Source: an uncultured Candidatus Saccharibacteria bacterium (GTDB lineage: Bacteria; Patescibacteriota; WWE3; CAZQFB01). From it: 64,000 nt of DNA. Each line of letters starts with the position of its first letter. The stretch's first letter is position 1. Below, piece after piece: positions 2,091-58,917 of the stretch. Made by a program: the position numbers and the translations under genes. The notes beneath the pieces were generated by a model. The model was not told the DNA's origin. It worked only from the letters and a program-made list of their open reading frames with translations, and ran no database searches. Location of the stretch: NCBI GenBank assembly GCA_964592525.1, contig CAZQFB010000001.1, positions 212,413-276,412 on the forward strand, read 5' to 3'.

Positions 2091-3737
2091 TTAGTGGTTG
2101 TTTTGTGCCAACAGAAAAAGCCCGTATTTTTGATCAATTAGTTGCCAATCTCCCGTGGAGATTAGCTGCTGTAAATCGGCAGGTAGCGGAATGGTACCCA
2201 CAAAATTAGAGACTTCTTCAGTATCGTGTACTCCATTGACAGTATCTACTAATATATACTCTGCTTCTTTGTTTACGATAAAGGGATCAGCGGGTGAATA
2301 ATAAATCCATATCTTTTGTCTGGAGGAGAGAGCTCCTGTGAATTTATGATTAGTTGCAGTTGGTGCGTTTTTTGGAATTGAGGCGATCATTTGCCAAGCA
2401 ATTGTATCCCGGGGACTTAACTGGTAGCGAAAGCTGTCACTCTCGGTGAATAAGGCTTTGTATATTGGCGAGTACATATAAAAACCCCATAAGGTAGTTA
2501 TAAGAATTAGAAAAGGAATATAGCGAGCCTTTCTGAAGTATCTAGAAAGATTTGCATTTGCCTGGATAGCTCCAGTTATTAGGAAGGGAATAACGGCAGC
2601 AAAATAATATATCAATACGGGTAAGCGGAAATCCCGGGTTGATACATTGAGTAGAAAATTTCTTCCTATTGTCGGAAGTAGACCGATTAAGTATGTTGGG
2701 CTAAGAATGGGAATATACATAAATGGCTTAAGAAGTAAATTTTTCAAAAACTCTGTTTTTCTCACCTCAAAGAAGAAATCAATAAACGTATACCTGGTAT
2801 GTTCCCGCATATAGGCAATAATTTCATGAGCGTTACTTCCGAAATGACTGTAGTTATCCAAGGGACCATACCTGGGTATTTGCACCTGACTGTATTCAAG
2901 TAAATGTGCAGACCAGCGAGCTGAAATAATAAACCACAATAACCCAACAACTATTGGTACTAAACACCATTTGAATAAGTAGGTAAGCTGAATTTTAATT
3001 GTTTCTTTGTGGCTCGCAGTGAGGATTTTTTTCTTACTACTCTGCTTCCAAGTCAGCACAGTTTTCAAAATGAAGCTCCATTTATTGCCTCTCTTTAACA
3101 TCGGTAATAAGGTCTCAATTTTGTGACTTATTATCTGGAATATTCTGGCAATCAAGGTTAATAACCCAAAACTAGCAATCACTGGGGCGTTTGTTTCGTT
3201 ACACGAGAGAGCTAATACCATAGCTAACAGAAAAAGTTTGTATCTGCTCTGGATATAAAAGTAAATCATTAACAACAGGAAAAAGATTACATAAGTTTCA
3301 AATCTAAGATCAGAAAGCACAATCCAGTGTAATAAGGGGTTTAGCAGATATATTAGTGAAAACAGTACGGCTTGGTTTTTGTTTTTAAGAACTTTTTGCG
3401 CCATTAGAAATATCGGAATTGCTCCCAAGGAGAGAAAGAGAGTTTGTAAAAGTAGAAGCATAGTCACATCTGGCTTGAAGATATAAAAGGGCAGAATAAG
3501 AAACATAATTAGATCTACATGTTGACTAAAAAAGGGTAATCTTTCGTTGTTATATACTGTTTGGAAAAGAGGGTCTTTGCCATAACTTAGGTTATACATC
3601 GTCTGGTTTCTTTGACCAATGTCCATAGCCCACCAGGTTGAAAAAGACCTGTATTGATCGTTCGCCAGAGAGAAACCAATTAGTGTAAATATGGTTATCA
3701 CAGTGCCAAGTAATATCAAATAGTATCTTGATTTCAT
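2091..3737 (-). CDS. polytopic integral membrane protein, DUF2079-like (putative glycan-processing membrane protein)
   Basis: A 548 aa protein with more than 10 predicted TM segments, an N-terminal D-I-G-x-R-N-Q motif and a His-containing loop (SQHVDLIMFL). It sits at the edge of the glycosyltransferase island. Confidence 0.4.
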   Translation of the reverse strand: MKSRYYLILLGTVITIFTLIGFSLANDQYRSFSTWWAMDIGQRNQTMYNLSYGKDPLFQTVYNNERLPFFSQHVDLIMFLILPFYIFKPDVTMLLLLQTLFLSLGAIPIFLMAQKVLKNKNQAVLFSLIYLLNPLLHWIVLSDLRFETYVIFFLLLMIYFYIQSRYKLFLLAMVLALSCNETNAPVIASFGLLTLIARIFQIISHKIETLLPMLKRGNKWSFILKTVLTWKQSSKKKILTASHKETIKIQLTYLFKWCLVPIVVGLLWFIISARWSAHLLEYSQVQIPRYGPLDNYSHFGSNAHEIIAYMREHTRYTFIDFFFEVRKTEFLKNLLLKPFMYIPILSPTYLIGLLPTIGRNFLLNVSTRDFRLPVLIYYFAAVIPFLITGAIQANANLSRYFRKARYIPFLILITTLWGFYMYSPIYKALFTESDSFRYQLSPRDTIAWQMIASIPKNAPTATNHKFTGALSSRQKIWIYYSPADPFIVNKEAEYILVDTVNGVHDTEEVSNFVGTIPLPADLQQLISTGDWQLIDQKYGLFLLAQNNH

Positions 3738-3783: not shown

Positions 3784-4533
3784 ATGGTCAATAATAAAAC
3801 CATATCTGTAGTAATACCCTGTCACAATGAGGAGGAAAGTATTCTCCACACACTCTCCATGGTGCCAAAAGAGGTTGATGAGGTAATAGTAGTAGATAAT
3901 CTCTCAAGTGACAGGACTGCTTCTAATGCGCGTGAGGCTGGAGCTACTGTGGTTTTGGAAGAAAATAAGGGCTATGGTTATGCTATCAAGGCAGGTATCA
4001 GAAGCGCTTCCGGAGATGTGGTGATAGTCGCGGACGGTGATGGAACTTATCCTTTTGAGCTTGCGACTACTTTGGCTTCTCATCTTGTAACTAGTAACTT
4101 AGAGTTTATTTCCTGCTCAAGATTTCCTCTTACCACTAAAGAAAGTATGTCGCCGGTAAATGTGCTTGGAACAAAAATATTAAACCTCGTTGCCTTTATG
4201 TTGTATGGTGTTTGGTTTAGGGATATTCTCTCTGGAATGTGGGTTTTTAAAAGAGAGGCAGTAACGCAATTAGATTTGGTGAGTAATGATTGGAATCTTT
4301 CAGAAGAGATAAAGATAGAGGCGGCAAGGAAAACTAAATTTAAAGAGGTTCATATTAACCATAATGTTAGATTAGGTGAAACAAAATTGATGAAATGGTA
4401 CGTGGGTTTGGAAAATTTAGTTTTTCTTTTTTGGAAAAGGTTTTTCCCAACTCGCGCTTTACCAACCTGTTTTAGAATCACACAATATCAGAATAAGTTT
4501 GAACCTACACCAAATATAAAAAATGAAAAGTAA
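3784..4533 (+). CDS. GT2 family glycosyltransferase (polyprenol-phosphate sugar synthase-like)
   Basis: The N-terminal ISVVIPCHNEE...VIVVDNLSSDRT...GYGYAIKAGI...VVIVADGDGTYP is a classical GT-A/DPM-synthase DxD architecture. Confidence 0.75.
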   Translation: MVNNKTISVVIPCHNEEESILHTLSMVPKEVDEVIVVDNLSSDRTASNAREAGATVVLEENKGYGYAIKAGIRSASGDVVIVADGDGTYPFELATTLASHLVTSNLEFISCSRFPLTTKESMSPVNVLGTKILNLVAFMLYGVWFRDILSGMWVFKREAVTQLDLVSNDWNLSEEIKIEAARKTKFKEVHINHNVRLGETKLMKWYVGLENLVFLFWKRFFPTRALPTCFRITQYQNKFEPTPNIKNEK

Positions 4534-5971
4534 CCACACAAAAAATAGGCGAGTTGTTGTTATTGGTGCTGGTCCTACAGGACTCTCGGCGGCTTATTAT
4601 TTAGTCAATGGTGGTGGCGATGCAATTGTGCTTGAAAAGCAATCTGCTGTAGGTGGGATGGCTAAAACAATTAAGTACAAAGACATAAAGGTAGATTTTG
4701 GACCGCATCGTTTCACGCCCCACACTCAACAGGTTAAGGATCTGGTGTTTGACTTGATGGGTAGCAGTATTCTTATAAAACCACAGGTCTCAAAAATATA
4801 TCTTTGGGGAAACTACTTAAGTTACCCCTTAAAAATGACTTCTATACTTAGGTCTGTTAATCCCTTGATTCTTCTTAAGATCGGTTTTTCCTATCTACTC
4901 AAGCTTGTTAAGTCTGGTTTAAGGGGGGGTGCAATCAGAAATTATCGGGAGTATATGGAATATAATTTCGGACCATATTTAGCGCGAGAAGTATTTTGTC
5001 CAATAATTGAGAAGACTTGGAAGTTAGACCCTTCTGAAATTTCGCTTGATCTAGCGAAACAACGCGTAGCAATGGAGAGTTTGTTGAAGACATTTCTTAA
5101 TATTATTCTTAAAAGAAAACCAGCTGTATACGCTACGCAATTAATGCCAGCAGATCACTTCTATTACCCTCAAGGAGGTTTTGGGACTATTTCGGAGAAA
5201 CTAAAAGAAGAGATTCTAAAACAAGGAGGTCACCTTGAGTTGAAGGCAGAGTTAACCGGGATTATTTGTAAAAAGGGAAAGGCTACTGCTGTTACTTATA
5301 AACAAGAGGGTTTGACCAAAACAGTGCTCTGTGACTCGGTAATAGCTACTTGCCCCCTTACGGAAATAGTATCTAAGTTATCAGGTTGTGATATTCCAGC
5401 AGGGATAAAGCAGGCAAGTGAGCATCTTAAGTTTCGTCATCTGCGCATCCTTTTCTTAGTGCTTAATAGAAACAGGCTTAGTGAGGATATTTCTATATTT
5501 TATCCTGATTTGTCCTTGCCTTTTGGGCGATTGTTTGAGCAGAAGAATTACGATGAGCATATGGTGCCAGAGGGTAAAACTGTTCTGGGAGTGGAGTTGA
5601 CTTGTGCGGACGAAGACTATTACTGGTCTGTTTCGGATGAGGGATTAGGCAAGGAAATAATAAATTCGCTAGTAAAGGTGGGTCTTATTACTGCTGAAGA
5701 AGTGTTGGATTATTTCAGCCAGCGCAATTCTTTTTCGTATCCTGTTTATGATCTTGAGTATAAAGATAATTTAGAAAAATTAACCTTGTTTACCGATCAG
5801 ATAACTAATTTAATCATTGTAGGGCGAGCTGCCTCATTTTTATATAACAACACACACCACTCTCTGGAGATGGGTTATTTGGCTGCTAAGCAGGTGCTTT
5901 CAGGGGATGATACTATTAAAGAGTGGGCAAAAGACAGAGAACTTTTTCATTCGTATACGATAGTGGAGTAG
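4523..5971 (+). CDS. FAD/NAD(P)-binding oxidoreductase (amine-oxidase/CrtI/UGM-like fold)
   Basis: The N-terminal dinucleotide-binding motif is VVVIGAGPTGLSAAYYL...LEKQSAVGGMAKT (GxGxxG...E...GG). The protein is 482 aa. Its start overlaps the upstream GT2 stop by 11 nt, which suggests translational coupling. Confidence 0.65.
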   Translation: MKSNHTKNRRVVVIGAGPTGLSAAYYLVNGGGDAIVLEKQSAVGGMAKTIKYKDIKVDFGPHRFTPHTQQVKDLVFDLMGSSILIKPQVSKIYLWGNYLSYPLKMTSILRSVNPLILLKIGFSYLLKLVKSGLRGGAIRNYREYMEYNFGPYLAREVFCPIIEKTWKLDPSEISLDLAKQRVAMESLLKTFLNIILKRKPAVYATQLMPADHFYYPQGGFGTISEKLKEEILKQGGHLELKAELTGIICKKGKATAVTYKQEGLTKTVLCDSVIATCPLTEIVSKLSGCDIPAGIKQASEHLKFRHLRILFLVLNRNRLSEDISIFYPDLSLPFGRLFEQKNYDEHMVPEGKTVLGVELTCADEDYYWSVSDEGLGKEIINSLVKVGLITAEEVLDYFSQRNSFSYPVYDLEYKDNLEKLTLFTDQITNLIIVGRAASFLYNNTHHSLEMGYLAAKQVLSGDDTIKEWAKDRELFHSYTIVE

Positions 5972-44765: not shown

Positions 44766-47555
44766 ATGGAACTAGCCTTTTTAACCTTACTTTTTTGTTG
44801 CCTAGCACTATACATTACCTCTCGTGATCTCAAGTGGGGGTTAGTGTTATTGGTGCTAACTCTCCCCTTAAATAATCGCTTGATGTTTGATTTATTTATT
44901 TCTCAACAACTATTACCGGTTAGGTTAGTTTTGGTAGCTGTGCTGATAGTGCTGCTTAAGAACACATGGCTTGCATACCACCCATTCTCTGTGAAAGAAA
45001 GGTGGTCTTCTCTACTTAAAATGGGGCGACAAGACCCATTTCTATTTTTACTGATAAGTTTGTTGGGGGTGCGGGTTTTGTCTTTAATCAATGTGATTAA
45101 CTTTAAATTTTCTTTAACCTTTATGGTTTTTTATCTGGCGATGATTGGCATGTATTTGGTGATGAAGTATGTTTATGCTCGTGAGGGGCGCGAATTTTTC
45201 TACCAACTTTTCCAACTTCATGCTGGGGTGGTGGTAGCTACGAGTTTGTTTAGTGTGGTGCAATTTTTCTTTTTTAAAGGTATTGGTAGAGTGTTGCCGG
45301 GAGTCTGGCCTTCCACCACCGAACCGACTAGGTTTGGGTCAACTTTTTGGGATATTAATCACTATGCTCCCTATGTAGGTAGTGTGATTCCTTATTTCTT
45401 GATAAGGCTGATTGCTGCTAAGACTAATAAGGAACGAGTATTATTTGGTTTTTGTTTTGGGCTGACTAATATCAGCTTGCTGATGACGTTGTCTCGAAGT
45501 GGTTGGTTAGGTTATGCTTTTGGGCTCGGTGTCTTTGGTTTGTTGCTGATAATCAGAAAGATGTGGCGTGGTTTTTCTTGGTATTTAGCTGCCATGATAT
45601 TGATTATGCTAGCCGCTTTAGCAGGGGATATGTACTTCAACCATCCGATCTCAAGAAGGATAAAATCCTTAGGTACTAATGTTTACAACGAATCTTTTAA
45701 TGCGCACCAAATTCTGAATAAAGGTCATTTTGAGTTGTTCTCTAGACATCCGGTGATTGGTTCTGGGTATGGTAACTTTAGTGACCAGTTTAGAACTACC
45801 CCACATGCGGCTAAATATTTTGAGATTGATCCGGTTGCAGAAGTGCGTTTGCCTTCTCATAGTGTCTGGTTAGAAATAATGTCTGAAACAGGGATGCTGG
45901 GATTAACCACATTTTTGGTCTTAGTGGCTTATGTTTTTAGACGGTTATTTTTAGCGATGAACACTAGTGAAGAGAAGTGGCGCTATCTAGGTGTAGCGCT
46001 GTTTGCCTCAATTGCTGGCATGTTATTTTCTTCTCTTTTTTACCACTATAACCTGGAGTATTTCTGGCTGATAATTTTCCTAGCGGTCTTTGTGGCGCGC
46101 AGTGTGTTGCCCACCGAACAGTATCAACCTCAAGATTACTTGGTCACCTTTTTACTGGTTGGTTTAGCCACTGCCATGATTTTTCCACAGCTGGGTAAGA
46201 ACGCTCTTATTGACTGGGATGAATCCATTTATGCACAAGTCGCCAAAAATATTGCTCGCTTTCGTGATCCGATCACCCTGCGTTGGCATTTAGAGAAATA
46301 TTGGTTTGAAAAGCCTCCGCTCTATTTTTGGTTCACAGCAGCGCTTTACTTGGTTCATGAGGTGTCTGAATTTTCAGCTCGCTTTTGGTCCGCACTGTCT
46401 GGTGTTTTGGGGGTAGTGCTCGTCTATTTTTTTGGTCGTGACTTAGCAGGTAGAGCTGTTGGGTTGGCTTCGGCACTGACCTTGCTCTCTACTGTTCATT
46501 GGTTGTTCCAGTCAAGAAATGGCACTTTAGATGTGATGGCAGCAACTTGTATAGTGGCCACACTTTGGTTGTTTTACCGAGCACGGACGCGGTTGAGGGA
46601 CTGGTGGTTGGTGGGAGTTGGTTTGGGTCTGACCTTGATGGTTAAAGGAGCCGTGGCAGCGGTTCCTTTATTGATTATGGTTATATTTGGGGGATATGAA
46701 TATTTTCTGCAGCAGAAAAAAAATTACTACCCCTGCCGACAGCTTTTTGTAAGAATACTGGTGCCTTTCAGTGTGCTTGTCTTACCCTGGCATATCGCTG
46801 TTATCTGGCTTCATGGTCGGCAATTTATTGATTCGTACTTTTTTTATCATGTTCTGCAACGATCAACCACTGGTATTGAGCAACATGGTCATTCTTTTTT
46901 CTGGTATTTGATTGTCATTAAAGTGTGGGCTAGACATAATTTTGTACTGCTGCTTGGCTCTTTAGCCTTACTGTTTACAAGTTGGCTGAAAAAAAGGCGC
47001 CGTGGTCTAAAAGCAAATACGCCAGAAGTGTTTTTGATTTTATATTTACTAGTAGCGTGGCTGATATTTTCCCTTTCGGCTTCAAAGATTCAGTGGTACA
47101 TTATGCCCTTGTATCCAGCGATGTCTTTAATTGTGGGTTATAGTTTGGTAATACTGTTTAGGTGGTTACCTTTGAAAAGGTTTATACCCATATTATTAAT
47201 GGTCTTGACTTTAAGTGTGCCTTTTTTTAAAGATCGTTATCAGTCACTATGGAATCTGGAAGATGCTTGGCGAGGCGTTGCCGAAGTTGTGCCTCATCTT
47301 AAGTATGAAGCGCGAAAAGTCTCCTCGCCGCGACTGTTAATAATTGATATGTCTCCAGGTCCGGCAATGTTTTACAGCCCCCATCCAACGGAAACAGGTA
47401 ACTTTTCAACGTTGGTTAAAGCGGCGGAAAGTGAGAACTCTTTCTTTGCCGTTGCTAGAGTAGGGCAAGCCGAAGATCTGATAAAGCTTTATCCGGAAAG
47501 GAAGGTTAAAATATATAAACAGTCTGAAGATTTTGCGCTGCTGGGTAGATGGTAA
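44766..47555 (+). CDS. fusion protein: N-terminal O-antigen ligase/polymerase-like (Wzy_C) domain + C-terminal PMT/ArnT-like GT-C domain
   Basis: The 929 aa protein has a first half containing LMTLSRSGWLGYAFGLGVFGLLL (Wzy_C/O-antigen ligase motif) and a long periplasmic loop. The second half contains IDWDESIYAQVAKNI...FEKPPLYFWF (DE motif plus KPPL, the ArnT/PMT signature). Confidence 0.55.
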   Translation: MELAFLTLLFCCLALYITSRDLKWGLVLLVLTLPLNNRLMFDLFISQQLLPVRLVLVAVLIVLLKNTWLAYHPFSVKERWSSLLKMGRQDPFLFLLISLLGVRVLSLINVINFKFSLTFMVFYLAMIGMYLVMKYVYAREGREFFYQLFQLHAGVVVATSLFSVVQFFFFKGIGRVLPGVWPSTTEPTRFGSTFWDINHYAPYVGSVIPYFLIRLIAAKTNKERVLFGFCFGLTNISLLMTLSRSGWLGYAFGLGVFGLLLIIRKMWRGFSWYLAAMILIMLAALAGDMYFNHPISRRIKSLGTNVYNESFNAHQILNKGHFELFSRHPVIGSGYGNFSDQFRTTPHAAKYFEIDPVAEVRLPSHSVWLEIMSETGMLGLTTFLVLVAYVFRRLFLAMNTSEEKWRYLGVALFASIAGMLFSSLFYHYNLEYFWLIIFLAVFVARSVLPTEQYQPQDYLVTFLLVGLATAMIFPQLGKNALIDWDESIYAQVAKNIARFRDPITLRWHLEKYWFEKPPLYFWFTAALYLVHEVSEFSARFWSALSGVLGVVLVYFFGRDLAGRAVGLASALTLLSTVHWLFQSRNGTLDVMAATCIVATLWLFYRARTRLRDWWLVGVGLGLTLMVKGAVAAVPLLIMVIFGGYEYFLQQKKNYYPCRQLFVRILVPFSVLVLPWHIAVIWLHGRQFIDSYFFYHVLQRSTTGIEQHGHSFFWYLIVIKVWARHNFVLLLGSLALLFTSWLKKRRRGLKANTPEVFLILYLLVAWLIFSLSASKIQWYIMPLYPAMSLIVGYSLVILFRWLPLKRFIPILLMVLTLSVPFFKDRYQSLWNLEDAWRGVAEVVPHLKYEARKVSSPRLLIIDMSPGPAMFYSPHPTETGNFSTLVKAAESENSFFAVARVGQAEDLIKLYPERKVKIYKQSEDFALLGRW

Positions 47556-53394: not shown

Positions 53395-54158
53395 TGTCCA
53401 CTATCAGAATTGAGGGGGTGGTGGTTAAAGTACGGAAATATGGAGAGAAAGATCGCCTGCTCACCATTTTTACCAGGGAACGGGGGAAAATTACAGCTTT
53501 AGCAAAAGGTTCTCGTTCTTTATGTAGCAAACGTTCACCTCATCTTGATTTGTTGTGCCACAATGAATTTATTTTAGCTACTGGATATGCTTGGGACATA
53601 GTGTTGGATACTTTTCCCATCCCCGGTAAGCGCCGAGATACGCCAACTCTTTCCCACATCGCGCAACTGTATTATTCAGGTGAGTTACTGGATTTATTTT
53701 TAGCGGATAAGCAAGCTAATGCTTTAATTTACGATGCTTTGGTAAACTTTCTCAATTCGCTAGTGAGATACCCAAGCCATGGGAATTTGTATACACAATT
53801 TCTCCTTCGTTATCAGTTGGCGGTACTAGAAGCGAGTGGTTTTAGTCCAGAGCTCCATAAATGTTTAGTATGCCAGCAACCCCTTTCTCCCACGACAGTC
53901 TATTTTAGCCCCCAAAAAGGTGGGGTGATATGTGCATCTTGTGCCGGTCAGGTACTAGATTCAGTTGTGATGAGTTTAGAGGCGCTTAAAGTAATGCGCT
54001 TTCTCAAAAAAGCGAGTGATGATGAAATAGCTTTATTGCTATTGCGACAGAAATTGCTGGCCGAGGTTCAAACGCAACTTAATCGGCATATTGAGTGGGT
54101 GGGCGAACGAAAAATGAGGACAACTTCACTATTTAATGAACTTAATAAGTTTAGCTAA
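53394..54158 (+). CDS. recO: DNA repair protein RecO
   Basis: The N-terminal OB fold is IEGVVVKVRKYGEKDRLLTIFTRERGKITALAKGSRS. A C-terminal Cys4 zinc finger is present (CLVCQQ...CASC). Confidence 0.75.
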   Translation: MSTIRIEGVVVKVRKYGEKDRLLTIFTRERGKITALAKGSRSLCSKRSPHLDLLCHNEFILATGYAWDIVLDTFPIPGKRRDTPTLSHIAQLYYSGELLDLFLADKQANALIYDALVNFLNSLVRYPSHGNLYTQFLLRYQLAVLEASGFSPELHKCLVCQQPLSPTTVYFSPQKGGVICASCAGQVLDSVVMSLEALKVMRFLKKASDDEIALLLLRQKLLAEVQTQLNRHIEWVGERKMRTTSLFNELNKFS

Positions 54159-54312
54159 CGTTAGGGATATGAGAAGTTGCGACCAACGGGAGCAATTTGG
54201 GTGGAGAAGTCTGCAAGACTTCGTAACCTCATATCCCTTGTTATATTCCCCGAAGGGCTGAAATTTAGTGCAACGTCCCGAAGGGAAATTTCAGAGTTGC
54301 TCGGCGGCGGCG
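54158..54312. repeat. repeat element A (imperfect palindrome GGGATATGAG...CTCATATCCC, a duplicated CCCGAAGGG motif and the IR arm ttgctcggcggc)
   Basis: The inverted-repeat arms lie at 54158-54167 and 54208-54217. A CTAACGTTAG palindrome overlaps the recO stop. ttgctcggcggc at 54297-54308 is the reverse complement of 55152-55163. Confidence 0.5.
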
Positions 54313-55125
54313 TTAAACTTTAATCTCCATTCCATCAAAGACAAAATCAAAATCCATATCAGAATATTGTTTTTTCATTTTTTGGAGATGCTTCTCTCCC
54401 CAAATATTGATTTCAACTTCTTCAATGTGGGTTATAAGGGTTCTTTTTGGTCTAATCTCTCTCAATCTTTGCATCAAGGCATCGAAAGAAATTTCAGAAG
54501 GAATATCGGAAAATAAACCGCATTCATTTATCAATAAATCTAAATCTCTGAAATTTTTGTAATTATCGAAACTAATAGTATCACAAGGAGCATATAAAAC
54601 TTTTTTGCCGTTACTTTCAATCAAGAAGGCATAAGTTTCGGATTCTTTTCCCTTATAACCCACAACAGTTATAGAAACATCTCCGATTTTGATTTTGTCT
54701 CCATCTTCGATAAGGTGCAATGCCCCTGTTTTCTGGACATTGATATAGTATTCAATAACAGGAAATCTTTGCTTAAGGGTCTCGAAAACTTTTTTTGCAA
54801 CATAAATATTAACAGTTCTATCTGCTTTGCCTGTTCTGAAATTATAATACGATTCAAGAAGATGTCTTAAACCGAATGTATGATCTGGATGCCAATGAGT
54901 AATAAATAGATTATCTACTTGTTTTATATTTCTTCGGTTTAAAGAATCCGCAATATCTTCACCGCAATCAATAACTGTATTTATCTCATTGATAAAGATA
55001 GAACTGCTGTTTCGTTTGAATGGTTCTCCAAGTTTTCGAGCTTTCTTGCAAATTGTACATTGGCAGTATGGTCTTGGTGTGGGCATTGCACCGCCAGAAC
55101 CTAAAATCGTAAGTTTCATACTCAT
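54313..55125 (-). CDS. MBL-fold metallo-hydrolase (PhnP/PqqB-like phosphodiesterase type)
   Basis: ILGSGGAMPTPRPYCQCTIC...ITHWHPDHTFGL has the HxHxDH motif plus the N-terminal Cys cluster typical of PhnP-like enzymes. It lies in an AT-rich segment. Confidence 0.65.
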   Translation of the reverse strand: MSMKLTILGSGGAMPTPRPYCQCTICKKARKLGEPFKRNSSSIFINEINTVIDCGEDIADSLNRRNIKQVDNLFITHWHPDHTFGLRHLLESYYNFRTGKADRTVNIYVAKKVFETLKQRFPVIEYYINVQKTGALHLIEDGDKIKIGDVSITVVGYKGKESETYAFLIESNGKKVLYAPCDTISFDNYKNFRDLDLLINECGLFSDIPSEISFDALMQRLREIRPKRTLITHIEEVEINIWGEKHLQKMKKQYSDMDFDFVFDGMEIKV

Positions 55126-55300
55126 ACTATTTTCCTTAAAGTTTATAATTGTTTTGATTTAGCCGCCGAGCAATTGAATATAACGTCTGCGTGTATGAGA
55201 AGTTTCGCCGACTTCTCTATTATCTATAAAATGGAGGCGAAATTTGGGTGAAAGAAAAAGTGCAACCCTTGAAAATCATTAACGCACTTTTTCTTGAATC
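55126..55300. repeat. repeat element B (degenerate copy of element A: GTGTATGAGA...TCTCATACAC palindrome, atgagaagtt / aatttgggtg / agtgcaac blocks)
   Basis: The inverted-repeat arms lie at 55181-55190 and 55290-55299. It shares ordered sequence blocks with element A, and gccgccgagcaa at 55152-55163 is inverted relative to A. Confidence 0.5.
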
Positions 55301-55326
55301 TCATACACACTGTTATCGGATGTAAT

Positions 55327-55809
55327 TTAATAATTTTTTGGTATAAGCGAGATAATCTCCTCTACTGTTTCTTCTGGCGTTTGGTCAGTGTTATCAATAA
55401 TTTTGCCAAAAGCAGGCTGCGATATTCCAATATCATAATGATGCTTAATGCGATCGCGTTCCCATTGTGTCAATACTCTATCATTTGTATCGCTTTGCGC
55501 CTTTTTGATATCCGGCGATAGCGTGAAGAAATGTAATTCACTCCCCGTAAGTGCTGTTTTTAAATACTCATAGTTTTTTTGAGATAAGGGATAAGTAATC
55601 ACAACGTTATATCCATGTTTGGCAAAATTATTGATAACTAACACAGCATTTTCTAGGTTAATCGGAATCGCTTTATCTATTTCCAGCCAATGGATAAATT
55701 CGCGAAAACTATCAATCTCCACATTTGCTGTGTTTGGTATTTTACTGGTAAGTATTTTGGCTACCGTAGATTTTCCAGCGTTTATTGAGCCATTAATAAA
55801 GATGATCAT
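55327..55809 (-). CDS. P-loop kinase, chloramphenicol-phosphotransferase (CPT)-like / zeta-toxin-like small NTP-binding protein
   Basis: A Walker A motif sits at the extreme N-terminus (MIIFINGSINAGKST). The protein is 160 aa and lies in an AT-rich segment. Confidence 0.5.
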   Translation of the reverse strand: MIIFINGSINAGKSTVAKILTSKIPNTANVEIDSFREFIHWLEIDKAIPINLENAVLVINNFAKHGYNVVITYPLSQKNYEYLKTALTGSELHFFTLSPDIKKAQSDTNDRVLTQWERDRIKHHYDIGISQPAFGKIIDNTDQTPEETVEEIISLIPKNY

Positions 55810-55884
55810 TTAAAAAAAATTATTAAATTATTTCCGATAACTGGTAATTATGCAATTATTATAATATAACATATACCATATTAT

Positions 55885-56733
55885 GTGTATTATGCATACT
55901 TATGTTATTTTGTTAATATGCAAAACATATTAAATAATACCGATAGAGCTTTGCGCTTGCGAAACTATTCCCCAAGAACAAAAAGCGCATATTTGCTTTA
56001 TATTAAGGACTATATCACCTTCTCAAAGCGTGCTGAATTCAAGAACAAACAACAAGCTGTTGAAGACTTTTTGCTTGATAAGCACAAACAAGGAAAATCC
56101 CCGCAAACAATTAATCTCGCCCTCAATGCTATAAAATTCTTGTACCATGAGGTAATAAAAGATCCGCAGAAAATTGATGTGAGGTATGCAAAAAGAAGTA
56201 AGAAACTGCCCATTGTATTGTCCCGAGCAGAAATTAATAAAATTATTGAGGCTACAGAAAACCCTAAATACAGACTGATGATTTCACTTAGCTATGGCTG
56301 TGGTATGAGAGTGAGTGAAGTTGTTAATCTAAAAGTTGCTGATTTGGATATTGACGATCTTGTGGTGCATATCAAAGGAGCAAAAGGCAGAAAAGATAGA
56401 ATTAGCGTGTTGCCCGAAAAGTTGCAGAACGACTTGCGAAACAGCATTGCTGGCAAATATATGAGCGAGTTTGTCTTTGCTTCCAATCGCGGGGGTAACC
56501 TAACAACCACATCATTGCAAAAAATGTTCCGCCAAAGTCTGACCAAGGCAAAGGTGCATAAACCCGCTACTTTTCACTCACTCCGACATTCTTTCGCAAC
56601 ACATCTACTTGAAAACGGTGTTGATGTTCGCTATGTGCAGGAGCTTCTTGGTCATCAAAATATTCGGACTACGCAAATATACACGCAAGTTACAAACCCA
56701 AGCCTTAAAAATATCAGCAGCCCCCTTTGTTAA
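55885..56733 (+). CDS. tyrosine-type site-specific recombinase (XerC/XerD-IntI superfamily integrase)
   Basis: The C-terminal catalytic region is HSLRHSFATHLLENGVDVRYVQELLGHQNIRTTQIYTQV (R-H-R-Y). An upstream box I is present (GMRVSEVVNLKVADLD). It is divergent from the two AT-rich cassette-like genes. Confidence 0.8.
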   Translation: MYYAYLCYFVNMQNILNNTDRALRLRNYSPRTKSAYLLYIKDYITFSKRAEFKNKQQAVEDFLLDKHKQGKSPQTINLALNAIKFLYHEVIKDPQKIDVRYAKRSKKLPIVLSRAEINKIIEATENPKYRLMISLSYGCGMRVSEVVNLKVADLDIDDLVVHIKGAKGRKDRISVLPEKLQNDLRNSIAGKYMSEFVFASNRGGNLTTTSLQKMFRQSLTKAKVHKPATFHSLRHSFATHLLENGVDVRYVQELLGHQNIRTTQIYTQVTNPSLKNISSPLC

Positions 56734-56785: not shown

Positions 56786-58141
56786 ATGGCGACTTTGGAG
56801 CAGATAGTTTCTTTATGCAAAAGACGTGGGTTTGTTTTTCAATCTTCTGAAATCTATGGCGGTTTCTCCGCTGTATATGACTATGGCCCCTATGGTGTGG
56901 AGCTGGCTAGAAACATTACCCACCATTGGTGGAAAGCCATGGTTCAGGATCATGAGAATATCGTGGGTTTAGATGCGGCTATTTTTATGCATCCCAAGGT
57001 GTGGGAAGCCTCTGGTCATATGAGTGGGTTCTCCGACCCTTTGGTGGAATGCAAGAGTACGGGTGAAAGATTGCGGGTAGATCTTCTTTTGGAGGAGGTT
57101 GGGGTAAGGGCCGATGAAAAAATGAGCCTTTCCGAAATCCAACAACTCTTTGATGAAAACTTTGAGCAACTCAACCTGCCTTCCCAAGACAGAGCAGACT
57201 ACTCACCAGTTCGCGCCTTCAATCTACTCGTAAAATCAAATCTTGGTGACTTCACTCAAGAAGGAGACGAGGTTTCTTATTTAAGAGGAGAAACCGCACA
57301 AGGAATCTATGTCAATTTTAAAAATGTGGTGGATTCCACTAGGCAAAAAGTACCTTTTGGCATCGCTCAAGTGGGTAAAGCTTTTAGAAACGAAGTAACC
57401 GCTCGTCAGTTTATCTTTCGCACCCGTGAGTTTGAGCAAATGGAGATGCAATATTTTGTGCACCCTGATTTGGAGATGAAAGAATATGAGGGTTGGAAAG
57501 AAAGAAGAATGCAGTACTACCAAGATTTAGGCATTGCCGAGAATAAACTACGTTGGGCTAAGCATGAAAACTTGGTTTTTTATGCTAAAGAGGCTTTTGA
57601 TATTGAATATGAATTTCCCTTTGGGTTTAAAGAAGTTGAGGGGTTACATGCCAGGGGTGATTATGACCTTTCCCAGCATAGTAAATATTCCGGGGTGGAT
57701 TTGACTTACTTTGACCCCCACACCGAGGAGAAATATATACCTCATGTGGTGGAAACTTCCACGGGAGTGGCTCGCAATCTGCTGATGCATTTGTGTAATG
57801 CGTACGCGGAAGAAGAAGAACGGGTTGTGCTTAAGCTTCCCTATCAATTGGCTCCCGTTAAAGTGGCTGTTTTTCCTCTGCTTAGGAACAAGCCAGAGCT
57901 GGTGACTCGTGCCAGGGAAATATTTAACAACTTAAAAGTCAGTTATATGTGCGAGTTTGATGATAACGGCAACATCGGTAAGCGTTACCGTCGTCAAGAT
58001 GAGATCGGCACTCCCTTTTGTGTCACTGTAGATTTTGATTCCCTTCAGCAAGGTGATGTGACAGTCAGAGAAAGAGACTCAATGAAGCAGGAGCGGTTGA
58101 GTGCTGACGCACTGCTTGCATATTTATCACCAAAACTTTAG
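56786..58141 (+). CDS. glyQS: glycine--tRNA ligase (dimeric class II GlyQS type)
   Basis: The N-terminus LCKRRGFVFQSSEIYGGFSAVYDYGPYG is very characteristic. The FRNE motif and a C-terminal anticodon-binding domain are present. Confidence 0.85.
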   Translation: MATLEQIVSLCKRRGFVFQSSEIYGGFSAVYDYGPYGVELARNITHHWWKAMVQDHENIVGLDAAIFMHPKVWEASGHMSGFSDPLVECKSTGERLRVDLLLEEVGVRADEKMSLSEIQQLFDENFEQLNLPSQDRADYSPVRAFNLLVKSNLGDFTQEGDEVSYLRGETAQGIYVNFKNVVDSTRQKVPFGIAQVGKAFRNEVTARQFIFRTREFEQMEMQYFVHPDLEMKEYEGWKERRMQYYQDLGIAENKLRWAKHENLVFYAKEAFDIEYEFPFGFKEVEGLHARGDYDLSQHSKYSGVDLTYFDPHTEEKYIPHVVETSTGVARNLLMHLCNAYAEEEERVVLKLPYQLAPVKVAVFPLLRNKPELVTRAREIFNNLKVSYMCEFDDNGNIGKRYRRQDEIGTPFCVTVDFDSLQQGDVTVRERDSMKQERLSADALLAYLSPKL

Positions 58142-58359: not shown

Positions 58360-58384
58360 GGTGATTAGTGGTGAATTATGGTGA
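58359..58384 (+). promoter_or_regulatory. three direct TGGTGA repeats at 10 bp periodicity (candidate MraZ operator)
   Basis: TGGTGA occurs at 58359-58364, 58369-58374 and 58379-58384, immediately downstream of the -10 element. Confidence 0.45.
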
Positions 58385-58917
58385 TTTACCACCCTGTCCT
58401 GCCCAACCTTTTTATTTGGACAGGAGTATGCACTTTAATAACCTGTCCGCCAAAACACCATCCTATGCTTATTGGGGAATATACTAGTCAAATTACCTCT
58501 GGAAACAGAACTGCCCTGCCCAAAAAGCTAAGAAGTGAACTTGGTAACTCAATTCTGCTTACGCGTGGCTATGAAAAATCTTTGCTGATTCTTTCTACGC
58601 TGGCTTGGCGGGAGCTAATCAGTAGTACGGCACGTGGTCCCTTTACCTCGCAAGCAGTTCGTGATACCGCTCGGTTTTTACTAGGTGGGGCGCATGAGGT
58701 CAGTCTTGATGGGCAAGGGCGCTTTGTCGTACCACCAGCCTTAGTTGAGTATGCTCAATTGCACAATGAAGTAATCTTTTTGGGTTTGGAGCGTTGGGTA
58801 GAATTATGGGATAAACAGCAGTGGCGCGAACGAGAAAAATATCTGGTTAAACATAGTGCGGTGATTGGGGAAGTGCTAACTAAGCTACAAGGAGATAATG
58901 AACAACCCGAATTTTAA
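58378..58917 (+). CDS. mraZ: transcriptional regulator MraZ
   Basis: The tandem MraZ halves are GEYTSQITSGNRTALPKKLRSEL and LDGQGRFVVPPALVEYAQL. The true start is probably the internal Met near 58465, since the ORF's 5' end overlaps the operator repeats. Confidence 0.7.
   Translation: MVIYHPVLPNLFIWTGVCTLITCPPKHHPMLIGEYTSQITSGNRTALPKKLRSELGNSILLTRGYEKSLLILSTLAWRELISSTARGPFTSQAVRDTARFLLGGAHEVSLDGQGRFVVPPALVEYAQLHNEVIFLGLERWVELWDKQQWREREKYLVKHSAVIGEVLTKLQGDNEQPEF

Follow-up and report, generated by a model that had tools for sequence, protein, structure and literature searches.

The 64-kb window analysed here (64,000 nt of contig CAZQFB010000001.1, assembly GCA_964592525.1, from an uncultured Candidatus Saccharibacteria bacterium; positions are counted from its first letter) carries between recO and glyQS an islet that, with a probability of about 0.7 in our estimation, is a two-cassette array of an integron-like gene-capture platform. 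A tyrosine recombinase gene in this islet is divergent from a P-loop kinase gene and a metallo-beta-lactamase (MBL)-fold hydrolase gene, each of which is followed by a folded attC-like site, and a conserved attI-like site adjoins the recombinase gene. At the level of sequence comparison, the platform, its site family, the strand and position specificity of the sites, the crossover position, the mobility of cassettes between genomes and the foreign origin of the islet were established. The same cassette system recurs in many genomes of the candidate phyla radiation (CPR)/Patescibacteria. The platform is best described as integron-like in its working and as outside the IntI/attC family as now defined, because the recombinase is without the IntI domain and the sites, as folded, differ from a canonical attC. 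It is apparently of a new, undescribed variety, and the literature on integrons and attC sites in CPR/Patescibacteria, covered incompletely and so giving absence of evidence only, described no such arrays.

Organisation of the islet

A cassette consists of one gene and a structured site, in which an R'' box (..TCnnnYAAC) and an L stem of 10-12 bp precede two variable hairpins, joined by an unpaired CACCCAAATT linker, and an R' box (GTTRnnnGAAAT) closes the site. The features of the islet and of its flanks are listed below, where L numbers designate loci of other genomes.

55918-56733, plus strand: tyrosine recombinase gene, 271 aa from ATG 55918 (open reading frame (ORF) 55885-56733)
55839-55917, no strand assigned: attI-like platform, AAC/GTT core at 55839-55841 and a conserved 76-nt region up to the recombinase ATG
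55184-55840, minus strand: cassette 1, 657 nt, CPT-like P-loop kinase gene with attC-like site, adjoining the attI-like site
55327-55809, minus strand: P-loop kinase gene
55182-55323, minus strand: attC-like site of the kinase cassette (type A), 142 nt, ACATCCGATAAC-ag-TGTGTATGAG / hairpin 1 / TCACCCAAATT / hairpin 2 / AACTT-CTCATACACG-cagac-GTT
54159-55183, minus strand: cassette 2, 1025 nt, MBL-fold gene with attC-like site, from the TT of G|TT at 55183 to the G at 54159
54313-55125, minus strand: MBL-fold hydrolase gene
54252-54312, minus strand: extra hairpin module between the MBL stop codon and the R'' box (CTGAAATTTCCCTTCGGGACGTTGCACTAAATTTCAGCCCTTCGGGG), kept with the cassette in L085 and L086
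54157-54251, minus strand: attC-like site of the MBL cassette (type B), 95 nt, GGGGAATATAAC-aa-GGGATATGAG / hairpin 1 / CACCCAAATT / hairpin 2 / AACTT-CTCATATCCC-taac-GTT
54157-54159, minus strand: distal crossover core G|TT with the last R' box (GTTAGCTAAACT, cassette strand), overlapping the recO stop codon
53394-54158, plus strand: recO, stop codon TAA at 54156-54158
56786-58141, plus strand: glyQS

An earlier note on this DNA had described a low-GC islet between recO and glyQS with two minus-strand genes and a divergent tyrosine recombinase, and all of these were recovered at the coordinates it gave. The GC content was 0.345 in the islet (54159-55917) relative to 0.415 over the whole window. 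The AT-rich spacer given there as 75 bp has that length up to the start of the recombinase ORF (55810-55884, 14.7% GC) and extends to 108 nt at 16.7% GC when measured to ATG 55918. The ORF opens with a GTG at 55885, and ATG 55918 is almost certainly the true start, giving 271 aa, because the homologs are 270-271 aa long. The hydrolase, previously called PhnP-like, has the MBL fold (Pfam Lactamase_B_2, 1.8e-21) while its PhnP/RNase Z-type matches all fell far under the NCBIfam cut-offs, and the kinase called CPT-like is a P-loop kinase with marginal support from Pfam CPT (22.9 bits against a cut-off of 22).

Structured sites after the cassette genes

The repeat elements noticed earlier on the flanks of the two genes are real and are imperfect palindromes related to one another beyond chance, as supported by unique motifs, fold z-scores and a covariance model. 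The motifs TATGAGAAGTT and AATTTGGGTG are common to both palindromes, with exact copies nowhere else in the 64 kb, and their fold z-scores against shuffled sequences were -2.75 to -5.6. An inverted repeat of 28 nt (93%) surrounds the kinase gene (55312-55339 and 55814-55841), and a perfect 12-nt inverted repeat surrounds the MBL gene together with a 9-nt match between the R'' box of the MBL cassette (GAATATAAC) and the start of the same cassette (GTTATATTC), to which this box is complementary. Each ..YAAC box in the window is complementary to the start of its own gene unit and not to the GTT box after it, as is classical for integron cassettes, which form circles and recombine at G|TT. The core boxes read ..ATAAC / GTTAT.. 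and ..ATAAC / GTTAG.. (family consensus YAAC...GTTR), and both cassettes conform to the integron-type combination of an inverse core RYYYAAC, a core GTTRRRY and one ORF per cassette.

Sites of other genomes were found by a pattern scan to share one architecture. An R'' box (ACATCnnnYAAC or CCCTCnnnYAAC) is followed after 2-3 nt by a stem of 10-12 bp with TAT in it, and then come hairpin 1, a linker (CACCCAAATT or CCCATATT) that is unpaired, hairpin 2, AAC(T/A)TC with the return of the stem and, 4-6 nt further on, the GTT of the R' box (GTTRnnnGAAAT). The strict pattern was located on the cassette strand 46 times in 196 kb upstream of recombinase genes and 0 times in 398 kb downstream. A covariance model (R1) was built from 33 sites of other genomes with the window and its closest homologs left out. 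At E<=1e-3 in 659 kb, 53 of 53 matches to R1 were on the cassette strand and all listed coordinates were upstream of the recombinase. Within the window, the best match to R1 was the MBL site (65.1 bits, E=3e-12), the next was the kinase site (20.2 bits, E=0.035), and no other significant match was found over its 64 kb. Arrays in other genomes held up to 5-6 sites (L079, L004), one after each gene.

Compensatory changes were observed in 9 of the 12 L-stem pairs, a count that is partly circular as the scan required complementarity. The interiors of the sites were not used in selection, and single-site folding gave at least two hairpins in 58/63 sites (median z -3.7) with the conserved linker unpaired in 53/63; RNAalifold on a MAFFT alignment had recovered the L stem only, with the inner hairpins misaligned, so the sites were folded one by one. 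The spacers of the sites are asymmetric (2 nt versus 4-6 nt). The strand opposite the coding strand folded more stably in 59/63 sites, by 1.9 kcal/mol on average (p=1.5e-10), which argues for a role in DNA with a folded bottom strand, as in integrons, and not for a role in mRNA.

It is extremely improbable that the palindromes are ordinary intergenic elements, such as terminators, REP/MITE-like repeats or structured RNA of 3' untranslated regions, that lie near a recombinase gene by coincidence. The palindromes do sit after stop codons and would fold in mRNA as well, and one terminator-like match overlaps the kinase site. However, such elements would not account for R1 matches on a single strand and upstream of the recombinase, for the greater stability of the non-transcribed strand, or for the shared motifs of the window sites being unique in 64 kb. 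Most sites also lack a following T-tract, the homology breakpoints described below coincide with G|TT cores, and R'' covaries with the start of its own cassette hundreds of nt away. A search of the islet against Rfam, which has no attC family, returned nothing relevant, the sole match being a chance snoRNA (E=0.64). An IS200/IS605 or REP/MITE-type element was likewise considered and rejected, as the only associated enzyme is a tyrosine recombinase and the sites are restricted in strand and position with none elsewhere in the window.

Type B sites were preceded by an extra conserved hairpin with loop ACGTTGCACT and CCCTTCGGG repeats on its flanks (window 54252-54312; L057, L086, L087 and L167), and GTTGCAC was present again in hairpin 1 of type A sites.

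Crossover point and mobility of the cassettes

Across the arrays, the R'' box was closer to the R' box of the preceding boundary, which is the start of its own cassette, than to its own R' box in 31 cases as opposed to 4. The four variable nucleotides beside AAC matched the preceding boundary perfectly in 20/39 cases and the site's own R' box in 3/39.

Homologs of the kinase protein reached 90% identity and occurred in many CPR lineages. The DNA homology of the kinase cassette in L165, L167 and L168 opened at G|TTATCGGAAAT or G|TTATCGGAAATAATTTAATAA, and the sequence upstream of this point was different in each case: the window has its attI-like site there, L165 a type A site, L168 a type B site and L167 a truncated site. 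At the other end the homology in L165 and L167 stopped at ...CTCATACA(C/T)GCA..G|TT, with three different sequences after it. Near-identical type A sites were located 3' of the kinase gene in L165, L167, L064 and L054.

Relatives of the MBL protein reached 96% identity, and the cassette was found in the window, L085, L086, L087, L095 and L097. Its DNA homology opened at window positions 55183-55187 in L085, L086 and L097. The aligned flanks in L086 passed through a homologous site with compensatory stem changes to the G|TT at 54157-54159, past which the window leads into recO and L086 into another cassette. A relative of 84% identity in L095 lay directly at the attI-like site, while MBL homologs at <=80% identity were ordinary chromosomal genes without such sites. 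These alignments show mobile cassettes that are bounded at G|TT and exchanged between genomes.

The earlier note had also raised the possibility of a small integrative element inserted beside recO, in which case the recombinase and both genes would have arrived as one unit and the palindromes would be attachment sites or internal terminators. This is contradicted by the two genes, which in other arrays occur apart from each other, in a different order and beside different genes, with G|TT as the boundary of each. No conserved sequence or repeat was seen on the far side of the recombinase gene, and an array can contain as many as 5-6 sites of the family, one after each gene. In favour of a single element, the low-GC segment reaches into the 5' part of the recombinase gene, the recombinase has different surroundings in different genomes, and the islet proteins are far closer to foreign homologs than the host RecO is. 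Taken together, a single element is very unlikely. Neither a phage integrase that uses attL/attR nor an inversion system or shufflon, both also considered, fits one-orientation single-gene arrays with one site family and G|TT breakpoints.

Twenty cassette ORFs sampled from other arrays were compared with Pfam, and their cargo included Asp/Glu racemase, SAM methyltransferases, LysE exporter, DpnI-like nuclease, Ham1, RibD_C, isochorismatase, CYTH, NUDIX, DUF711, trypsin-like protease, SET domain, cytidine deaminase and HIT. Arrays bearing the kinase also held APH, HD, HAD, PPDK_N/PEP-utilising and MccF-like S66 genes. The kinase and the MBL hydrolase of the window fit this picture of small accessory enzymes.

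Truncated sites were observed in L085 (~880-945) and L167 (~3560-3645), where the cassette start was fused to R''-spacer-L'' instead of a complete site. The junctions read ..CCCTCATTTAAC AG CGA|TTATATTC.. and ..CCCTCGTCTAAC AC AGC|TTATGCGGAAGT.., look as if recombination or deletion had occurred between the L'' box (..TTATG..) and the R' box (GTTAT..), and suggest secondary-site events.

The attI-like site beside the recombinase

The attI-like sequence reads AAC|TGGTAATTATGCAA...TTATGCATAC... and contains two TTATGCAWAC-type direct repeats and promoter-like hexamers pointing toward the cassettes, the promoter-like matches in the conserved 76 nt being weak ones in AT-rich DNA. It was compared with 80 genomic loci of recombinase homologs (L001-L080). 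In 67 homologous loci the sequence was conserved between the recombinase ATG and ..TTATCCAAAAACCA (cassette strand), and conservation ended abruptly at the AAC/GTT core (...YAAC|TGGTTTTTATCCAAAC...). The distance from this edge to the ATG was 76 nt in 21 of these loci, as it was in the window. Beyond AAC the sequence differed from genome to genome and was made up of genes divergent from the recombinase, and the ORF length upstream of the recombinase in the other loci was overwhelmingly on the cassette strand. The divergent recombinase, spacer and co-oriented cassettes that the earlier note had read as an integron-type layout are thus matched by a conserved attI-like site, single-gene cassettes, structured sites and a G|TT crossover.

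Contigs ended <=420 nt upstream of the recombinase in 31/80 loci and downstream of it in 2/80, and the attI side is a hot spot of variation. DNA 3' of the recombinase stop codon had no conserved sequence or repeat across the compared loci, and the genes located there were housekeeping genes, some of them recurring, such as tsaD (L009, L034 and L040), ruvC (L017 and L019) and a tRNA gene (L003). The platform looks resident in the chromosome and not carried on a larger mobile element because housekeeping genes, without conserved DNA, follow the recombinase. Neither recO nor glyQS was found beside the recombinase in any of the 80 other loci. The context is accordingly not conserved, but the distance of these genomes is too great for this to prove an insertion.

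Three Logan contigs from the same organism as the window end within the two hairpin sites, and such sites break metagenome assemblies. Gene-less mini-cassettes in the form of perfect hairpins were present at the attI-like site or between sites (L002:~5890-5925, L011, L026, L038, L058 and L167:~4360-4400), for example GTTATTCAAAAT-(loop CCGCTTCACTCC)-ATTTTGAATAAC, and some seem nested within a larger palindrome. The first cassettes of L010, L012, L014, L026 and L027 featured a leader (GTTAnnnGAAATATTCCTTTTCTTTT.GGGCTA.CGCCCAATTGTTTTAAAAAATTTT) and a recurrent short hairpin motif (..AGGGG.A.ATAAGGTGTTTTCTCCGCT.CGCTCCGAAAACGATTTATTTATAAGG..) 5' of restriction-modification and helix-turn-helix (HTH) genes.

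The tyrosine recombinase and the weighing of the alternatives

The recombinase comprises the domains Phage_int_SAM_4 and Phage_integrase, and its catalytic R, K, H-x-x-R, H and Y motifs were conserved together with the C-terminal ..SPL tail. A comparison with proteins of solved structure placed the Vibrio cholerae integron integrase VchIntIA (2a3v) first at 172.6 bits, ahead of XerA (136.6) and XerD (83.4). Homologs number in the thousands with more than 100 at 76-81% identity, and the metagenome-assembled genomes carrying them are labelled Kerfeld-, Vogel-, Morani-, Roizman-, Zambryski-, Peregrini-, Gracili- and Saccharibacteria among others. Plasmid-borne relatives, class 1 IntI included, had <=40% identity. 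No second tyrosine recombinase was found within the 64-kb window. An AlphaFold2 model based on 18 close homologs had a mean pLDDT of 58, too low for a fold search, and was not used.

Several points weigh against an integron-like platform. The integron integrase model TIGR02249 was the top NCBIfam match of the recombinase, at 230.3 bits under a cut-off of 265, the score with PRK15417 was 143.7 bits against a cut-off of 435, and the protein fell under the cut-off of every named NCBIfam family. The IntI-specific insertion, which the earlier note had named as the feature to look for, was not present in the alignment with VchIntIA. This alignment fell into two blocks (query 11-206 with IntI 12-212, and query 194-270 with IntI 241-317), as did that with TIGR02249, so that ~30-40 IntI residues including the I2 helix were unmatched and ~17 residues of the recombinase occupied the place of ~50 in IntI; the protein has 271 aa relative to ~320 aa for IntI. 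The I2-bearing insertion has been reported as essential for attC recombination in the integrons studied (cited in PMC9668308 and PMC8138268; also PMC7790495). When folded, the sites form three-way junctions in which the conserved CACCCAAATT linker is unpaired, with 12-nt R boxes (ACATCnnnYAAC / GTTRnnnGAAAT) and spacers of 2 nt against 4-6 nt, and they are not classical attC hairpins, the canonical attC being an R/L-box hairpin with extrahelical bases. No close relative of the host was found in the databases and hence no empty site or variant array for comparison, and one arrangement only is on record, as the three Logan contigs break in the hairpins. The recombinase family is, moreover, very widespread in CPR and tightly set among housekeeping genes, so that an Xer-type role is conceivable. 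A 'Cand' subgroup of tyrosine recombinases from candidate phyla has been grouped as Xer-related and seen as presumptive Xer substitutes (Smyshlyaev et al. 2021, PMC8138268).

The last two points lead to an alternative that we consider unlikely, in which the recombinase is the sole housekeeping Xer of its host in the manner of XerS, XerH or XerA, the adjacent site is its dif, and the genes are tandem insertions like those of integrative mobile elements exploiting Xer (IMEX). The site adjoins the recombinase gene in XerS/difSL and XerH/difH, and Xer can use folded single-stranded hairpins, as with CTX phage. The architecture is Xer-like in size and in lacking the IntI insertion, and the attI-like site, readable as ATTTCnnnYAA - 7 nt - TTATCCAAAC, may be taken to have two inverted RTTTSnnnYAA arms ~7 nt apart as in a dif-like core, although any tyrosine-recombinase core looks so. 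The protein scored 206 bits with the archaeal XerA model and about 180 with XerC and XerD, yet the cut-offs of all the Xer models were missed (XerA_Arch 206 against 220, XerC 180.5 against 335, XerD 179.7 against 330 and XerS 81 against 267), and it is nearer to IntI than to any Xer of solved structure. Over the 64 kb, all 2-kb bins to the left and right of the islet had a positive GC skew and the flanking genes were on the plus strand on both sides, and for this reason the locus would lie within a replichore and not at a terminus dif; it is mid-replichore and at least 7 kb from any skew switch, with only 7.3 kb of the window downstream. The sign of the skew flipped at the locus in only 2/20 other loci, where cassette DNA distorts the upstream skew. 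One-orientation arrays of single-gene cassettes with their own structured sites are also unlike the known IMEX pattern. The earlier note's proposal of a recombinase that is simply the housekeeping Xer was weakened by the skew and gene orientation. An Xer/dif function and an integron-like platform are not mutually exclusive, and a dual role is possible.

Comparison with known systems

The integron-like platform shares with sedentary chromosomal integrons a recombinase divergent from a one-orientation array of mostly single-gene cassettes and a conserved insertion site adjoining the recombinase gene. In both cases each cassette is closed by an imperfect palindrome that has ..YAAC / GTTR.. cores, the crossover falls on G|TT with an inverse core matching the start of the same cassette, cassettes are common to different genomes, and the bottom strand folds better. 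IntI proteins are also the best relatives of the islet recombinase by structure and by hidden Markov model (HMM). Apart from the differences in recombinase and sites given above, the present hosts belong to CPR/Patescibacteria, a group for which no reports of integrons were found.

The single-recombinase systems XerS/difSL, XerH/difH and archaeal XerA/dif resemble the islet in having a compact Xer-sized recombinase, a two-arm core site directly upstream and housekeeping-like chromosomal surroundings. In contrast to these, the islet is not at a GC-skew switch, its site leads into variable cassette arrays, and its recombinase is under the Xer cut-offs and nearer to IntI than to XerA, XerD or XerH. 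Insertion of IMEX and CTX phage via XerCD parallels what we infer for the islet, namely a recombinase lacking I2 acting on a folded single-stranded site and a double-stranded chromosomal site, with one strand exchanged and the product resolved by replication, and tandem insertions pile up at one site. The islet elements differ in being single genes without replication or phage functions, and the cassettes use one structured-site family and are shuffled between arrays like integron cassettes.

Members of the 'Cand' subgroup are simple tyrosine recombinases typical of candidate phyla, and the islet recombinase, compared by description, probably belongs to the same protein family, although no associated sites or cassettes were described in that work (PMC8138268). 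The pdif modules of Acinetobacter plasmids are likewise small gene modules bounded by recombinase core sites in varying contexts, but their 28-bp XerC/XerD sites are double-stranded, alternate in orientation and are without long folded palindromes, and the modules have no fixed platform beside a recombinase gene and do not form one-orientation arrays.

Proposed mechanism and its implications

Circular single-gene cassettes would insert at the attI-like core (55839-55841), with the recombinase catalysing exchange at G|TT; under insertion at this core, the newest cassette would adjoin the recombinase and the oldest junction would coincide with the recO stop codon. Once a cassette is excised as a circle, R'' may pair with the R' box of its own cassette over 12 nt with a conserved AA/CA mismatch (ACATC versus GAAAT), and the paired R''/R' boxes and the L stem would form a folded two-arm substrate with an asymmetric spacer of 2 nt and 4-6 nt that mimics a core site. 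The substrate is probably single-stranded and formed by the bottom strand. The partner sites have in common only ~(A)C-GTT-R (AAACCA|GTT in the attI-like site relative to GCGAAC|GTT, CCTAAC|GTT and CTGAT|GTT in cassette sites). The exchange would most likely involve a single strand, because the partners share this short motif and no 6-8 bp overlap, and replication would then resolve the product as in integrons and in CTX-phage integration. Cassettes may be expressed from a promoter proximal to attI.

Under this mechanism the circular kinase cassette would have the junction ...CTCATACACGCAGACG|TTATCGGAAATAATTTAAT and the circular MBL cassette ...CTCATATCCCTAACG|TTATATTCAATTGCTCGG, while the junctions expected for an empty or partly emptied platform are ...GCATAATTACCAG|TTAGCTAAACTTATTAAG and ...ATTACCAG|TTATATTCAATTG.

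The chances seem even that CPR/Patescibacteria carry a widespread lineage of integron-like platforms with an IntI-related integrase that lacks I2, having never had it or having lost it, and with single-stranded DNA cassette sites in the form of three-way junctions. If so, recombination of cassettes through folded hairpins would not need the I2 innovation, the lineage would represent a surviving relative of the state before integrons or else have arisen independently, and the reduced genomes of CPR would have in it a major route for exchanging genes. Integron biology credits the gain of the I2 helix with enabling an Xer-like recombinase to act on folded single-stranded attC sites (PMC7790495). 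A cassette system run in nature by a relative without I2 would be a direct test of this idea and could provide a second structure-specific recombination system for engineering. Gene exchange in the ultra-small host-dependent CPR bacteria is poorly understood, and a platform that stores and swaps single small genes would be a concrete mechanism for it; the cargo seen includes kinases, hydrolases, nucleotide-salvage enzymes, methyltransferases, transporters, restriction-modification parts and putative antibiotic-modifying enzymes. Tools of the IntegronFinder type need the IntI-specific domain and would therefore miss these elements, and the spread of integron-type systems may be underestimated.

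Origin of the islet

The recombinase, kinase and MBL proteins of the islet have foreign homologs of up to 81%, 90% and 96% identity, respectively, whereas for the host RecO no non-self homolog above 32% identity was found in 5.8 billion clustered proteins and an exact look-up was empty. This difference together with the low GC content shows that the islet was horizontally acquired. Gene content and the labels given to relatives of the islet genes point to a CPR host. The best GlyQS matches had 53-54% identity in a library clustered at 50%, and these were not used since the clustering makes them uninformative on the nearest relative.

The distal core at 54157-54159 would be the original right half of the insertion site. 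As cassettes that enter at an attI-type site do not disturb the distal junction, the original one (...AAGTTTAGCTAAC|TGGTAATTATGC...) is probably preserved in the last half-site.

Other observations in the window

Roughly a dozen tandem ORFs of 475-556 aa were located at 15595-38187 and 44766-47555. Two of three that were tested encode PMT_2-type membrane glycosyltransferases and the third MurJ, and a 929-aa Wzy_C and PMT_2 fusion lies alongside them. The region is a large paralog array for cell-envelope glycosylation. The MraZ ORF at 58378-58917 has 179 aa as called while its Pfam MraZ domains begin at about residue 45-100, indicating either an N-terminal extension or a start codon called too far upstream.

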